A DNA stretch of 18,258 nucleotides from a virus. A model generated the notes under the pieces. The model made no database searches. It was given only the letters and a program-made list of their open reading frames with translations, and was not told the DNA's origin. The stretch lies in the UHGV virus genome UHGV-0272440; one strand, written 5' to 3'. This document shows, piece by piece, positions 28-11,272 of the stretch. Every line of letters begins with the position of its first letter. The stretch's first letter is position 1. The position numbers and the translations under genes are program-made.

Positions 28-103
28 TGGTGGCCCTTGCTGGATTTGAACCAGCGACCTGGCGATTATGAGTCGCTCGCTCTCACCACTGAGCTAAAGG
101 GCC
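28..103 (-). tRNA. tRNA with anticodon CAU, Ile2 (lysidine) type, resembling E. coli ileX and prophage ileZ
   Basis: Reverse complement of 28..103 is a 76-nt cloverleaf: acceptor stem GGCCCTT/AAGGGCC, D stem GCTC/GAGC, anticodon loop CTCATAA (anticodon CAT), T stem GCTGG/CCAGC with TTCAAAT loop, encoded CCA. Near-identical to my recollection of E. coli ileX. Lies downstream of Q in the late direction, where lambdoid phages carry ileZ-argN-argO. Confidence 0.88.
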
Positions 104-1809: not shown

Positions 1810-2562
1810 TTATCTTGTCACCTTTCTCAATTGTATCTCTGCATATGCTTCTTCCTGCCAGCACTTTGTAACCAGTTTATCAATGACATCTGCATATCCT
1901 TTGTACCACTGATAATCCGTCAGGTCTGGTACCAGCTTCTGGACATGAAGCCGCGCCAGTGTGGTTGGTAAACGGCTAAACCGGTTTCCATTGCAACGCC
2001 CACAAACCTTATAAACAGGCGTGCCATGAAGCCGGGTTCTTTTTTCATCCAGGACAATACCTTTACCCTTACACCCTCTGCACGCTGTGCTGACTTCTCC
2101 CTTACCATGACAATGCTGACACAGTTCCTTCACCCACTCTTCCTTGATAACAGATTCCCCGCTTCTGGAGTGTTTCACCACTTCGCGCAATACATTATGA
2201 AATCCAGTACCAGCACAATGCTCACAGCGAGCCTTACTTGCCGCAGACCTGGAATAATCAGCAAAGGCAAAGTTCACAAGGTAAGGGATGATCTGTAACC
2301 GGGTTTCTTCACTCAATTTGTTCAATGTCGGGTTATCCAGTGCCATCGCGTAATTGAGCAGACCTTCAATCGCAAACTGAGGATCCTGAACACCAACTTT
2401 TGCCAGGAATAAGGCAAACCCAAGCGGTGCTTTCGACTGCACCATACCCTGCGCAGCCATTACATCCGTAATTGTTAAACCACCAGAGCCTGTCGCCGGT
2501 GCGTCATCGCTCAATTTTGGAGATTTCGGGGAGTAATATTTCGGTAAGGCTTCAAGGTTCAT
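1810..2562 (-). CDS. Late-gene antitermination protein Q (zinc-finger Q family, QuuQ/YdfT-like size)
   Basis: 250-aa ORF, ATG with GGAGA Shine-Dalgarno; four Cys pairs 'CEHCAGTG', 'CQHCHGKG', 'CRGCKGKG', 'CGRCNGN'; position immediately upstream of the pR'/tR' unit. Confidence 0.7.
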   Translation of the reverse strand: MNLEALPKYYSPKSPKLSDDAPATGSGGLTITDVMAAQGMVQSKAPLGFALFLAKVGVQDPQFAIEGLLNYAMALDNPTLNKLSEETRLQIIPYLVNFAFADYSRSAASKARCEHCAGTGFHNVLREVVKHSRSGESVIKEEWVKELCQHCHGKGEVSTACRGCKGKGIVLDEKRTRLHGTPVYKVCGRCNGNRFSRLPTTLARLHVQKLVPDLTDYQWYKGYADVIDKLVTKCWQEEAYAEIQLRKVTR

Positions 2563-7247: not shown

Positions 7248-7468
7248 GCCGCACCTCCGAGATGCTTCATGTTTTTTCCGGAGCGAAAGGCTATAAGCGG
7301 CATACTGACGCGGTAATTACGGCCCAGCGGTTCACAAATCACCTTCTGGCATTCACGGTCAACCAGGCTAACACGTAGAACATGCCCTGCAGGCGTGGTG
7401 TACCACTGACCCGGACGAGGACAACGGAAAGTATGATTGGTAAACCGTTTGAAAATATTCCGGATCAT
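7244..7468 (-). CDS. hypothetical small protein (74 aa), translationally coupled on both sides
   Basis: ATG at 7468 overlaps the upstream stop (ATGA) and its own stop overlaps the initiator ATG (ATGA). No recognisable family. Confidence 0.4.
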   Translation of the reverse strand: MIRNIFKRFTNHTFRCPRPGQWYTTPAGHVLRVSLVDRECQKVICEPLGRNYRVSMPLIAFRSGKNMKHLGGAA

Positions 7469-8616
7469 TTGCGCCCCCTTACCTCTGAAGGGTTCAGCGA
7501 CAAATTTATGAGACTGGCCAGTAGCGCCGCGTCGTTGATGCGGTCATACAGACTTACAGCCAGCGGGGATTCGGCTTTTGCCAACATGGGATAAAGCTGC
7601 TGCAGCCAGACCTGATGAATTGATGAAATGTAGGAATAGAGAACGCTGGCGTTATGTGCAACGTCGCTCGGTACAGAGGGCTTTGAAAGCTGTTTCTCCA
7701 TCTGGTTAAAGGCATTGATGTATGCCTCTTTGAACTGGGCAGCACGTTTACCCGTGAAACCCATAGCAAGAAACGCAAAACCGTCGCGTGTGATTTGGTA
7801 GCAAGGAAGTTTGCGACCTGTGCAATCAGTGTAATCACTCACCGAAAAATTGCGGGCAGTGAATGATGCTGAGCATTCAAGCGTGCGGATCTTTTTCAGT
7901 ACATCGTCATGACGTTTAGAGAAGAAGTCAGCAACAGCCAAAGAAGATGTAACAGCCTGACCATCAACGATGGCAATTTCAGGTTGAGAGATGGTTGGGA
8001 GAGTAGTCATGGTGACAGCCCCGGTAGTCAGTTTTTTAGAAAACTCACCACATGGGACGCCAATCACAGAGGTGGTGAGACGTACAGGGTTGGCGTTACC
8101 GGAGACTACCGAACCCGGCCCGACCGAAGTCGGCCCTGTACGCCACACCATAATTTGGGCGTAGCAATGCTCATGACACGAAAAAACCGCATGAGCGCGG
8201 TTATGCTCAGTAATCAATTTCAGGACGCCAATCCCGGCACCCGCTTTATAAGGTGCCTGAACAGTGTAACGTCCCGGAATGGCAGAATCAATGTGCTGGT
8301 GGTCCTTCACACTCAACAAAATCACGCCTGAATTTCCACAAAGGACTAAAGCACTCATGCGGGTAGTCTTTGCGAAGATAGATAACGCGCTGTGTTTCTG
8401 GCTCCCAACGAATAACATGAACATAAAGTCCTCTTCCGTCACGAAACCAGCGGTTAAGTTCCTGCACAACTCGCCCCCCACAGTCAGGTAAAGTTCTCTG
8501 TGGTTACTTACAGCCAGGTGATTTGGTAATCTGCATTCATGCCGTAACAACAGGTGTGCAGCGACACTGACCACCAGCTGTTGCGACAAACGGTTATTTG
8601 CCGTTAAACTGTTCAT
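7465..8616 (-). CDS. Rha-domain phage regulatory protein with an uncharacterised N-terminal region of about 200 aa
   Basis: C-terminal half ('IAIVDGQAVTSSLAVADFFSKRHDDVLKKIRTLE...YQITRDGFAFLAMGFTGKRAAQFKEAYINAFNQMEKQL') matches the Rha/phage-regulatory domain. The ATG at 8616 overlaps the upstream stop (ATGA) with GGAGA upstream. The internal ATG at 8010 is an alternative start that would give a roughly 180-aa Rha protein. Confidence 0.55.
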   Translation of the reverse strand: MNSLTANNRLSQQLVVSVAAHLLLRHECRLPNHLAVSNHRELYLTVGGELCRNLTAGFVTEEDFMFMLFVGSQKHSALSIFAKTTRMSALVLCGNSGVILLSVKDHQHIDSAIPGRYTVQAPYKAGAGIGVLKLITEHNRAHAVFSCHEHCYAQIMVWRTGPTSVGPGSVVSGNANPVRLTTSVIGVPCGEFSKKLTTGAVTMTTLPTISQPEIAIVDGQAVTSSLAVADFFSKRHDDVLKKIRTLECSASFTARNFSVSDYTDCTGRKLPCYQITRDGFAFLAMGFTGKRAAQFKEAYINAFNQMEKQLSKPSVPSDVAHNASVLYSYISSIHQVWLQQLYPMLAKAESPLAVSLYDRINDAALLASLINLSLNPSEVRGRK

Positions 8617-9164
8617 GCGTTAGTTTCTCCACAGACACAAAACGCCACGACGCCCGGAGCTGCACACTCGCGGGCGTCACTCTTTTCTGGAGCGCAGAAA
8701 ATTTTGTAGACCAGTGCCGCATGCTCCTGGAGCTTCGAAATTGACAGATACAATTCATCATTAATTGCTGTCTGCTCGTGTGGCTCCACTACCCCATCTT
8801 CGATTGCCGAACGAATCTGCTTTGAGTAACTCCCGATCTGTTCGATGACTTCCAGCAGGCGCTGGTTTATATCTGCGTTCTCTACTTCCTCAATTTCAGG
8901 AAGCGATACAAACACCCCACCAGCAGACTGTGCGACAGCATCCGCAATGTAGTGAGTGCCAGCAGCACGCTGTAAAATCATTGCCCATCCCAGCGGGAAA
9001 ATCTGATCGCCATCTGCACGAAGGCGGTTGAATAAAGCGTTCTCTGTAACATCCAGCCACTCAGCAGCTTCAGCGTAACCCCCTGGCAACGCCGCGATGG
9101 TTTTTCTGACAGCTTTCACGTACCACTCAGGCTGTTTTTCCACTTTCCAGTGATGATTACCCAC
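8613..9164 (-). CDS. Putative CII-like/YdaT-family regulatory protein
   Basis: 183-aa ORF immediately downstream of cro. GTG start with strong AGGAGG Shine-Dalgarno 6 nt upstream. Family assignment is from position and recollection of YdaT-like proteins following cro-like genes; not verified. Confidence 0.4.
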   Translation of the reverse strand: MGNHHWKVEKQPEWYVKAVRKTIAALPGGYAEAAEWLDVTENALFNRLRADGDQIFPLGWAMILQRAAGTHYIADAVAQSAGGVFVSLPEIEEVENADINQRLLEVIEQIGSYSKQIRSAIEDGVVEPHEQTAINDELYLSISKLQEHAALVYKIFCAPEKSDARECAAPGVVAFCVCGETNA

Positions 9165-9417
9165 GGCTTACCTCCTGTTCCTGTGGTTTAAACCCATTCT
9201 GGTTTTGGCTAGATTGAAAACGTGCCGGATAAAGAATCTGCATTTCGCTGATTTCACCCTTAAAAAAATTGGCCAGACGTTCTGCAAGATCGATAGATGG
9301 AATTTGTTCCAGTCTTTCAATACGACTCAGCGTCGCTGGATTGACCTGAACGCCAGCAGCAACATGCTGCAAAGTAAATCCGTGCGCCTTACGCACATTC
9401 CGTAATGGTGATTGCAT
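9157..9417 (-). CDS. Cro-like helix-turn-helix transcriptional regulator
   Basis: 86 aa; XRE-type HTH 'FTLQHVAAGVQVNPATLSRIERLEQIPSIDLAERLANFF'; GGAGGT Shine-Dalgarno; divergent from the repressor gene. Confidence 0.7.
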   Translation of the reverse strand: MQSPLRNVRKAHGFTLQHVAAGVQVNPATLSRIERLEQIPSIDLAERLANFFKGEISEMQILYPARFQSSQNQNGFKPQEQEVSRG

Positions 9418-9514
9418 ATAACCTCCACATATTGCGTGATGAGCATATTATTTCACGCAAATATTTTGCGCAAGTTGATTTGCTTAACGCGCAATAAAGA
9501 AATGTAATAAACGC
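9418..9514. promoter_or_regulatory. Divergent immunity promoter/operator region (OR-like)
   Basis: Inverted repeat TTGCGTGA...TCACGCAA (9435..9463), self-complementary TTGCGCAA (9469..9476) and GCGCAA (9492..9497). Candidate cro promoter on the minus strand: TTGCGC (-35, 9471..9476) - 17 bp - TAATAT (-10, 9448..9453), overlapping these repeats. Confidence 0.5.
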
Positions 9515-10207
9515 ATGAACATAGGAAACCGAGTCAGACAACTTCGCCAGGCGAAGAACATGAAAATCGCCGATCTCGCTGAAGCAATAGGAGTGGATGC
9601 GGCGAATATCTCACGCCTGGAAACAGGTAAGCAGAAACAATTCACTGAACAAGCCCTGAGTAATATTGCCAAGAGCTTAGGTGTTGATATTGCTGATCTC
9701 TTTACCTCAGACTTCAAAAGTAATACTGTATGTAAAAACAGTATTAGTGAGGATGTTGCGCAGGTGAAGGATGTATTCCGTATTGAAATGCTGGATGTCA
9801 GTGCCAGTGCGGGAAATGGCCTTATCCAGGGCGGTGATGTCATTGATGTGATTCATGCCATTGAATACAGAACTGATAATGCTGTATCGATGTTTGGTGG
9901 ACGGCCAGCCAATCACATTAAAGTTATCAACGTTCGTGGGGACAGTATGTGTCCAACCATTGAGCCAGGAGATCTCATCTTCGTTGATGTCAGTATCAAT
10001 CAGTTTGATGGAGATGGTATCTATGTATTTGGTTTTGATGATAAAATTTATGTCAAACGACTGCAAATGATACCTGACAAACTACTGGTGATTTCTGATA
10101 ACCAGATTTACCGTGAATGGGGAATTACCAGCGAAAATGAACACCGGTTTATGGTCTTTGGAAAGGTCTTAATCAGCCAGTCACAAACCATTAAGCGACA
10201 CAATTAA
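9515..10207 (+). CDS. CI-type prophage repressor (HTH plus S24 LexA-like autopeptidase domain)
   Basis: 230 aa; N-terminal HTH 'MKIADLAEAIGVDAANISRLETGK'; C-terminal S24 motifs 'VRGDSMCPTIEPGDLIFVD' (Ser nucleophile) and 'YVKRL' (Lys). Confidence 0.85.
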   Translation: MNIGNRVRQLRQAKNMKIADLAEAIGVDAANISRLETGKQKQFTEQALSNIAKSLGVDIADLFTSDFKSNTVCKNSISEDVAQVKDVFRIEMLDVSASAGNGLIQGGDVIDVIHAIEYRTDNAVSMFGGRPANHIKVINVRGDSMCPTIEPGDLIFVDVSINQFDGDGIYVFGFDDKIYVKRLQMIPDKLLVISDNQIYREWGITSENEHRFMVFGKVLISQSQTIKRHN

Positions 10208-10227
10208 CCCTTACCTCCTCATCAATT

Positions 10228-10249
10228 AGCCACCCAAAGGTGGCTTTTC
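10228..10249 (+). terminator. Rho-independent terminator after the repressor gene
   Basis: Stem AGCCACC (10228..10234), loop CAAA, stem GGTGGCT (10239..10245), then TTTT (10246..10249). Confidence 0.65.
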
Positions 10250-10259
10250 ATTACCCTTT

Positions 10260-10301
10260 AAATTGCATATCTCGCAACAAAAACACTTGCATAATGCGCA
10301 A
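10260..10301 (+). promoter_or_regulatory. Candidate early-left promoter/operator (pL/OL-like)
   Basis: Two 15-bp units of form TTGCA-N5-CGCAA ('TTGCATATCTCGCAA' 10263..10277; 'TTGCATAATGCGCAA' 10287..10301) sharing the CGCAA half-site with the OR repeats; -10-like CATAAT at 10290..10295. The promoter assignment is an inference. Confidence 0.35.
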
Positions 10302-10715
10302 CTTCATTTTATCTTTCTTTCCAGACAAACAAACAAGGTACTAACAAAATTTGGTTGTAACACGGCGTATGGCACATGCGTCGTTAGCGGTCTGGGGACG
10401 TTAAAGGGGACAATCCACTCCTTGCTCGGGCAAACAAACCAGGTAGCCGGAATGTGCAAGTCAATGATGATGCTGATAAGACGCCTAACCAGCGTGGCGA
10501 TTCGGTTTGACGCCTGGGAAGAGACCAGGGTGCAACGATGAGGGCATTTATGGAGCCGCGACAAAGTGTGGTGCCGTAACTGGCTAAGTGCTCTCAGCGT
10601 TGTGGTAATCCGCGAAATGGCGCGGCGGTAAGTATGGCGGGGTTACTCTTTCCCCGTTGAGGACACCGGATTGTCAGGTTGACCATACGCCTGAGTGACA
10701 ACCCCACCACAACAG

Positions 10716-10772
10716 CCACTGCTTTGGCGGTACCAGTTTGTACCCTTGCTTCCGGCTGGTACCGCTCTTTTT
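10716..10772 (+). ncRNA. DicF-like small RNA ending in an intrinsic terminator
   Basis: 'CTTTGGCGGTACCAGTTTGTACCC' closely parallels the 5'/seed region of E. coli DicF as I recall it ('GTTTGGCGGTATCAGTTTTACTCC'). Followed by a perfect 10-bp hairpin GCGGTACCAG (10727..10736) / CTGGTACCGC (10756..10765) and TCTTTTT. The 5' boundary is approximate. Confidence 0.5.
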
Positions 10773-10778
10773 ACAAAA

Positions 10779-10859
10779 CAGAGAAGAGCATCACCGGACG
10801 ACGGGCTCATAACCCAATCCATCCGGGCGGCAGCCACCGCAGGTGTTCTTCTCTGTTTT
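10779..10859 (+). terminator. Second large hairpin followed by a U-run (terminator/attenuator-like) in the early-left leader
   Basis: 12-bp stem CAGAGAAGAGCA (10779..10790) / TGTTCTTCTCTG (10844..10855, one G-U pair) enclosing a structured 53-nt loop, followed by TTTTGT. Confidence 0.4.
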
Positions 10860-10909
10860 GTGGAGAAACTAATCGGCCTTGCAGGGTCGATATGATGAGG
10901 AGCAGCAAA

Positions 10910-11272
10910 ATGGCTAGCGAACGCAGTACTGATGTGCAGGCATTTATCGGGGAGCTGGACGGCGGCGTATTTGAAACCAAAATCGGCGCAGTTCTCAGTG
11001 AAGTCGCTTCCGGTGTGATGAACACGAAAACCAAAGGTAAGGTCTCACTCAACCTGGAAATCGAACCATTTGATGAGAACCGTGTGAAAATCAAACACAA
11101 ACTCTCATATGTTCGCCCGACTAACCGCGGGAAAATTTCTGAAGAAGACACCACCGAAACACCGATGTATGTCAATCGCGGTGGTCGCCTGACTATTCTG
11201 CAGGAAGACCAGGGACAATTACTGACTCTTGCCGGTGAACCTGACGGAAAACTCCGCGCAGCAGGTCATTAA
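10910..11272 (+). CDS. hypothetical early-left protein (YfdP-like by size and position)
   Basis: 121-aa ORF from the ATG at 10910 with GAGGAG Shine-Dalgarno 8 nt upstream. The ORF-track start at 10679 would run through the terminator hairpins and is rejected. Confidence 0.55.
   Translation: MASERSTDVQAFIGELDGGVFETKIGAVLSEVASGVMNTKTKGKVSLNLEIEPFDENRVKIKHKLSYVRPTNRGKISEEDTTETPMYVNRGGRLTILQEDQGQLLTLAGEPDGKLRAAGH

Follow-up and report, generated by a model that had tools for sequence, protein, structure and literature searches.

The feature at positions 10716–10772 of the window (the whole stretch of DNA analysed, 18,258 nt of the UHGV virus genome UHGV-0272440) is probably a Rho-independent terminator hairpin that forms the 3′ end of a structured early-left leader RNA of ~173 nt located between cI and yfdP, and constitutes an allele of the dicF locus. 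Judged by sequence, the feature looks functional and is homologous to dicF by descent but is not a DicF by the features that define this family.

Genomic context

The 1.1 kb surrounding the feature are 99.5% identical to many E. coli chromosomes and 97–98% identical to phages including mEp460, cdtI and Stx2c phages; going by these similarities, the window is a part of an E. coli lambdoid prophage of the mEp460/SfV-like kind. Its gene map (Table 1) was built from the RefSeq annotation of relatives and from Pfam and PHROG domain searches. The cI-type gene, labelled as an XRE family regulator in the RefSeq relatives, is followed by ~700 bp with no called gene and then by yfdP, yfdQ, yfdR and more genes on the plus strand. 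The palindrome TTGC-N7-GCAA occurs five times in the window against an expectation of 0.76, and the three copies flanking cI are likely to be operators (OR and OL) of the immunity type. The gene map and the positions of these operator-like sites place the feature in the leader of a repressor-controlled early-left operon. The original prediction had drawn a parallel to dicF of the Qin prophage, which lies in a repressor-controlled operon next to the immunity region, and this parallel was borne out by the succession of cI, operator-like sites, homologous leader and hairpin.

Two other parts of the window carry RNA genes or matches to RNA families. A tRNA-Met gene (anticodon CAT, 28–103, minus strand) lies beyond a DNA methyltransferase gene (153–1202), downstream of Q, which is the usual site of lambdoid phage tRNA genes; the 349-aa ORF adjoining the tRNA gene is the methyltransferase and not an integrase. 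The ORF 7465–8616 (383 aa), called 'Rha family phage regulatory protein' in the RefSeq relatives, contains minus-strand matches to the Rfam families C4 antisense RNA (8068–8155, 77.7 bits) and isrK (8180–8256, 59.3 bits), and the Pfam domain Phage_ASH (PF10554, aa 117–212) falls on the same DNA, so that one stretch (7981–8268, minus strand) is claimed by a protein family and two RNA families.

Table 1. Positions of the features of the window that are discussed in the text.
Feature	Position	Strand	Basis or remark
Q	1810–2562	-	relatives' annotation and domain searches
Replication genes, Rha genes, ymfL		-	relatives' annotation and domain searches
Cro-like HTH gene	9157–9417	-	relatives' annotation and domain searches
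Third operator-like TTGC-N7-GCAA site	9480–9494		between the cro-like gene and cI
cI-type repressor gene (HTH and Peptidase_S24)	9515–10207	+	Pfam, PHROG; upstream of the leader and co-oriented
Terminator-like hairpin after cI	10228–10245	+	consensus scan
Two operator-like TTGC-N7-GCAA sites	10263–10277, 10287–10301	+	candidate OL/pL region with predicted promoter position
Predicted leader RNA, ~173 nt	10599–10771	+	predicted ends, homologous to the RACE-mapped ends of sRNA-17 (GTTGTGG..., ...CTCTTTT)
P1 helix, 5′ arm GUUGUGGU	10599–10606	+	MFE folds
DicF-leader cassette, hairpins Ha, Hd, Hb, Hc	10609–10705	+	93% identical to the UTR upstream of Qin dicF
P1 helix, 3′ arm ACCACAAC	10706–10713	+	MFE folds
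DicF-like core TTTGGCGGTACCAGTTT	10723–10739	+	match to the DicF core TTTGGCGGTATCAGTTT
Intrinsic-terminator hairpin	10726–10772	+	5′ arm 10727–10736, loop 10737–10755, 3′ arm 10756–10765, U-run 10766–10772
Long imperfect stem	10773–10861	+	arms 10773–10797 and 10837–10861, 25 nt each; ~22 bp; directly after the U-run
yfdP	10910–11272	+	first early-left operon gene past the terminator; RefSeq annotation of relatives; phrog_204

The hairpin and its DicF-like core

The segment had been taken for a near copy of the 5′ half of DicF, with a hairpin and a U-run behind it. The near-identity is real for the core, in which 16 of the 17 bases are those of DicF (none of 200 shuffles matches so well), and the DicF sequence quoted in the original prediction agrees with K-12, but its full 24-mer has no match within three ungapped mismatches because the similarity falls off after GTTT. 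The hairpin and the U-run are also present: the perfect 10-bp stem of GCGGTACCAG with CTGGTACCGC, extended by G-U pairs to 13 bp, encloses a pyrimidine-rich loop and is followed by the tail TCTTTTT, the U-run being short (five U with UC before them), and the predicted folding energy is −22.5 kcal/mol (z = −2.7; 2 of 200 shuffles fold as well). The hairpin does not stand behind the core, however, since its 5′ arm is the core itself, and in DicF the same bases make up the 5′ arm of the terminator (Rfam consensus structure). The 5′ half of DicF had further been regarded as the part that pairs with targets such as ftsZ mRNA. This did not hold, as the conserved 17-mer is mainly terminator stem while DicF pairs with ftsZ through its 3′/loop region (PMC5069750). 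The observation that the 3′ hairpin differs from that of Qin DicF was correct, the loop and the 3′ arm being different in the alignment with Qin.

Relation to DicF

In the alignment with K-12 Qin, 100 of the 107 bases at 10599–10705 (93%) are those of the untranslated region upstream of dicF; a gap of 19 nt follows exactly at the 5′ tail of DicF, and thereafter the core and the tail CCGC(C/T)CTTTTTA are conserved. The base of the window hairpin, GGCGGUACCAG/CUGGUACCGC followed by UCUUUUU, is built on the plan GGCGG...CCGCC, with G-U as the last stem pair because the tail reads CCGCU and not CCGCC. The two loci thus resemble each other in their place in the early-left leader, between the immunity genes and the first ORF downstream, in the ~107-nt leader cassette, in the hairpin base and tail UUUGGCGGUA(U/C)CAGUUU...CCGC(C/U)CUUUUU, and in a long stem directly downstream, where RNase III processes the read-through transcripts of dicF. 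Further downstream the similarity to Qin stops, dicB being found in Qin and yfdP in the window.

The family tests gave a different answer. Rfam RF00039 (DicF) had no match at the gathering cut-off and none at E ≤ 10 in 451 nt; in a search of 81 nt it reached 12.4 bits (E = 1.1, model positions 12–52 only) against a cut-off of 48 bits, whereas the positive control, K-12 dicF, scored 76.7 bits. The interval 10500–10950 is covered by no known Rfam family at any of the three stringencies searched. The view of the feature as a divergent member of the DicF family is therefore upheld as regards the homology of the locus, seen in leader, core and tail, and fails as regards the covariance model.

According to PMC5069750, DicF base-pairs through its 3′ region with ftsZ and pykA, and with xylR through its 5′ end, and its 3′ end arises by termination or by RNase III cutting of read-through transcripts. 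The window lacks the 5′ tail UUUCUGGUGAC with which DicF pairs to xylR, and TTTCTGGTGAC is missing throughout the window even with one mismatch allowed. The 19-nt gap also takes away the AU-rich stretch at which RNase E forms the 5′ end of DicF, so that a short form of DicF size may not exist. The inner stem UACCAG/CUGGUA is perfect in the window and bulged in DicF (UA-UCAG/CUG-CUC-UG), and the window loop, of 15–19 nt, has a different sequence with no complementarity to ftsZ. In a crude comparison of duplex energies that takes no account of accessibility, the loop pairs with the ftsZ ribosome-binding region at −10.0 kcal/mol, a value equalled or bettered by 86% of shuffled loops; DicF reaches −16.5 kcal/mol, which 0.9% of shuffles equal. 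Duplex energies of the full-length RNAs with ftsZ were uninformative due to the formation of long spurious duplexes, and were dropped in favour of this loop-restricted test.

One IMG/VR contig, L032, has the stem of the window with a different loop, GUUUCUCUCC, which shows perfect 11-nt complementarity to the Shine-Dalgarno region of ftsZ; a divergent yfdP homologue and no dicB lies downstream of it. The L032 loop pairs with the ftsZ ribosome-binding region at −19.5 kcal/mol, a stronger pairing than that of DicF and one equalled by 0.9% of shuffles, so targeting of ftsZ appears to recur in the lineage.

These data bear on the possibility that the feature is a functional DicF, i.e., a short Hfq-dependent sRNA that blocks cell division via the ftsZ ribosome-binding site, with some drift of its targets. 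The near-identical core, the homologous operon position and the behaviour of the L032 loop on the same stem speak for it, but the RF00039 score, the missing 5′ tail, the chance-level energy of the window loop with ftsZ and the fact that the conserved 17-mer is stem and not seed make it very improbable. Given the loss of the 5′ tail and a loop that does not match ftsZ, the canonical DicF function is improbable, and the window allele is unlikely to act on ftsZ as DicF does. That the allele may have an altered target range in comparison to DicF, as originally proposed, is plausible.

Link to sRNA-17 of E. coli K1

A 193-nt RNA, sRNA-17, was described by RACE and northern blot in a mEp460-like prophage of E. 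coli K1 RS218 (Sun 2020, PMC7719688). It was called novel there, having no Rfam match, and no relation to DicF was drawn. Its 3′ end was mapped by 3′ RACE and northern at the homologous U-run, and the supplementary alignment of the same paper contains the hairpin of the window verbatim as 'degenerative sRNA-17', for example in CP026199.1, which is among the closest relatives of the window. A literature search with the hairpin sequence gave no match. As the 3′ end of sRNA-17 the hairpin has been published before, and it represents a variant of an established kind of prophage RNA and not a new DicF.

The interval from GTTGTGG to CTCTTTT measures exactly 193 nt in mEp460, which is the published length of sRNA-17, and 173 nt in the window. 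The two sequences are near-identical over 10200–10608, which reaches from cI as far as the GTTGTGG of the published 5′ end, and again over 10705–10920; between these blocks mEp460 carries a 128-nt cassette and the window an unrelated cassette of 97 nt, that of the DicF leader. Over the last 67 nt of the window RNA, which comprise the P1 3′ arm, the linker, the hairpin and the U-run, a single loop base distinguishes it from the 3′ end of sRNA-17. The published RACE and northern primers, when mapped, place sRNA-17 in the plus sense of the window with its end at this U-run, while the site of the northern probe falls into the cassette that the window does not have. The window thus agrees with sRNA-17 in the cI–yfdP location, in the prophage type and in both end motifs, and departs from the full 193-nt sequence with its central cassette. 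By these alignments, the window RNA is a natural chimera in which the leader is that of DicF and the hairpin that of sRNA-17.

The strand of the mapped RNA is relevant to another reading of this interval, according to which the DNA codes for a protein on the minus strand (ORF 10643–10837, 64 aa, phrog_3651, mEp460 gp36) and the hairpin is incidental. The ORF matches phrog_3651 at E = 1e-37, its frame is open across the hairpin in all type-B loci examined (the hairpin type of the window, see below), and some RefSeq records call a hypothetical protein there. PHROG families inherit ORFs called by phage annotators on conserved DNA; the window ORF spans just the C-terminal half of the profile, and the stop-to-stop length varies from 92 to 266 codons among the loci. 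Pfam gives no match and PGAP calls nothing in this interval in the closest relatives; the RNA that was mapped runs in the plus sense, and the differences between genera keep the RNA stems and not the reading frame. We consider this reading hardly credible.

Expression, repression by ArcA and the phenotypes of sRNA-17 have been shown only for the 193-nt allele in RS218 (PMC7719688). The upstream 250 bp that were used as the 'promoter' fragment for sRNA-17 are conserved in the window. In the deletion strain, for which a phenotype was described, yfdP was up ~95-fold (PMC7719688). We considered this de-repression as a proof of termination in cis and rejected it: the deletion arms leave the hairpin in place, and the rise of yfdP cannot be assigned to loss of the terminator. 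The primers of Table S2 of PMC7719688 map to 10350–10371 and 10577–10599 of the window, and the forward qPCR primer for sRNA-17 lies 250 nt upstream of the 5′ end defined by RACE. There is consequently a longer leader transcript, from which the 193-nt form is probably processed, as DicF is. The start of this amplicon, together with the deletion that spares the hairpin, means that the published expression changes and the de-repression of yfdP concern the whole early-left leader and not the discrete 193-nt RNA.

Structure of the leader RNA and of the downstream region

In the predicted fold of the whole RNA, P1 encloses the cassette and is followed by a short linker and the terminator. Among 25 diverse leaders, 96.7% of cells are paired, against 33–63% when the partners are slid. 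The pair at the eighth position of P1 is C-G in 18 sequences, U-A in three and U-G in three, and both partners are changed in three leader pairs, of which one belongs to P1 (C-G to U-A) and two to Hb; this covariation is supportive but not decisive, as the sequences are closely related. The leader cassette of ~107 nt (10599–10716 and loci L003–L141) is >90% conserved across Escherichia, Shigella, Citrobacter, Trabulsiella and Erwinia. In hairpin Hb the stem is preserved by double changes, and the loop is always pyrimidine-rich (UUAUUCCUU, UUCCUCC, CUCCUU). The possibilities for the role of the cassette include a processing platform, a second seed or an antitermination element.

The long imperfect stem that begins directly after the U-run encloses a small conserved hairpin, GGGCUCAUAACCC, and its pairing is kept by compensatory changes in the Citrobacter, Erwinia and Trabulsiella homologues. 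In Qin, dicF is followed by an analogous stem, at which RNase III makes the 72-nt DicF, and on these grounds the window stem is a candidate RNase III site on read-through RNA or an element of the yfdP 5′-UTR.

A boxA/nut reading of CGCTCTTTTTACAAAAC was given up, since the corresponding position of the Qin allele lacks such a motif. The leader has no similarity to the HK022 immunity region, and the window contains no second copy of it, as regards an HK022 put-like antiterminator RNA. We identified no antitermination factor or site that would permit expression of the operon past this terminator.

Diversity of hairpins in the dicF slot

The hairpins that occupy this place were surveyed in 120 viral contigs and 16 species-representative genomes, using a 20-mer of the shared leader as an anchor. 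In Escherichia, Shigella, Citrobacter, Trabulsiella and Erwinia, this leader is followed by at least eight types of hairpin: the canonical DicF, the window type, designated B, and others, of which some combine the DicF 5′ tail with another hairpin and some show the opposite combination. All of them start with GGCGG and end with CCGCC and a U-run, and each folds as a terminator in which the complementary inner stem is specific to the type (UACCAG/CUGGUA, GUAUC/GAUAC, CAUCAG/CUGAUG or CAUC/GAUG). The loops differ from type to type and are mostly pyrimidine-rich, with anti-Shine-Dalgarno-like motifs CCUU/CUCC across genera, the stem base and the U-run being the only invariant parts.

A covariance model of the slot was built from variants A, C, D, E, F and H, with no type-B sequence included. 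It finds the window site at 20.1 bits, the sole match above 9 bits in the window, with an E-value of ~0.004 that is rough owing to a shortened calibration and becomes 0.09 in a search of 400 kb. Relatives with the type-B stem (Citrobacter, L032) score 34–38 bits and so bridge to the canonical DicF at >80 bits. Formal covariation for a single consensus hairpin is weak (one pair with both partners changed) owing to the different registers of the inner stems; the compensatory evidence for the slot hairpins comes from the predicted folds of the individual types.

Canonical DicF was found in 3967 of 5426 complete E. coli genomes and the type-B hairpin in 1872 (35%); the window form, i.e., the DicF leader joined to the type-B hairpin, occurs in 814 of the 5426 and the mEp460/sRNA-17 form in 586. 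Neither the type-B hairpin nor the canonical DicF is annotated as a feature in the RefSeq records among the matches listed, and the missing annotation thus says nothing on novelty.

Type B is followed by yfdP in all 18 loci with a readable downstream gene, while types A, C, D and E mostly have dicB downstream. This strict tie between hairpin and downstream gene is what one would expect if the element were a terminator or insulator acting in cis only, which stops pL transcription and cI read-through before yfdP, the RNA being an inert by-product and the loop differences resulting from neutral drift or from hitch-hiking with the downstream module. The invariance of the stem base and the U-run alone agrees with such a role, as does the lack of a phage-internal target above chance: when the loop was compared with both strands of the window, the best duplex, inside yfdQ, had −28.5 kcal/mol, which is the mean for shuffled loops. 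A bare terminator, however, needs no conserved structured leader of 100 nt. The homologous allele DicF is a proven trans-acting sRNA, sRNA-17 is detectable by northern blot and has a described deletion phenotype, and the nature of the loops across genera is also at odds with an inert RNA. A role restricted to cis is for these reasons rather unlikely, though it deserves consideration.

Proposed mechanism

We infer termination, processing and any trans function of this allele within our preferred reading, in which a structured leader RNA ends in a terminator hairpin. By descent the feature is a dicF-locus allele, with the same leader cassette and the same hairpin base UUUGGCGG...CCGC(C/U)CUUUUU, and modular recombination would have removed the single-stranded 5′ tail of DicF and swapped the loop and inner stem for those of sRNA-17. 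Transcripts from pL, or reading through from cI, would end at the U-run, and entry into yfdP-yfdQ-yfdR would thereby be attenuated. The terminated RNA may accumulate as a stable small RNA with a 5′ end probably processed at the base of P1, and the transcripts that read through are probably cut in the long stem just downstream, like those of DicF. A role in trans, if there is any, would be exerted via the pyrimidine-rich loop or the loops of the leader hairpins, and would not be directed to ftsZ, with which DicF pairs, or to xylR, the target of its 5′ tail.

A comparable arrangement is StxS, encoded in the PR′ leader (PMC7547250), which is likewise a short RNA from a phage operon leader ending at an intrinsic terminator. 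In leaders of this type the terminator must be bypassed for downstream expression and the by-product RNA can act in trans (PMC7547250). StxS belongs to a late operon and shares no sequence similarity with the feature of the window, which is part of the early-left operon.

Implications

The finding reveals no new kind of mechanism. The seemingly new points are the common scaffold of DicF, sRNA-17 and several other alleles, and the chimeric make-up of the window form, which joins two of these alleles. Faubladier and Bouche reportedly described dicF-like sequences in 1994, and their report may already cover some of the variants and hence a part of this conclusion.

As a tentative possibility, the dicF position may be considered to be a 'seed cassette' locus open to swapping by recombination, in which P1, the structured leader and the GGCGG/CCGCC terminator serve as a scaffold whereas the 5′ tails, internal cassettes and loops are exchanged. 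One sRNA superfamily with lineage-specific host targets would then comprise DicF, sRNA-17 and at least six other alleles, and the chimera of the window would have targets unlike those of both its parents.

DicF is a textbook prophage sRNA that tends to be regarded as a single sequence, the only one that annotation by Rfam finds; the window allele, present in 35% of the complete E. coli genomes, escapes the DicF model. For genome annotation, a result of 'no DicF' from Rfam does not mean that the locus is empty. Joining the literatures on DicF and sRNA-17 leads to the prediction that sRNA-17, like DicF, probably arises by processing of an early-left leader RNA, and that the alleles of the slot differ in their host targets, some, such as L032, probably hitting ftsZ and the window allele probably not.
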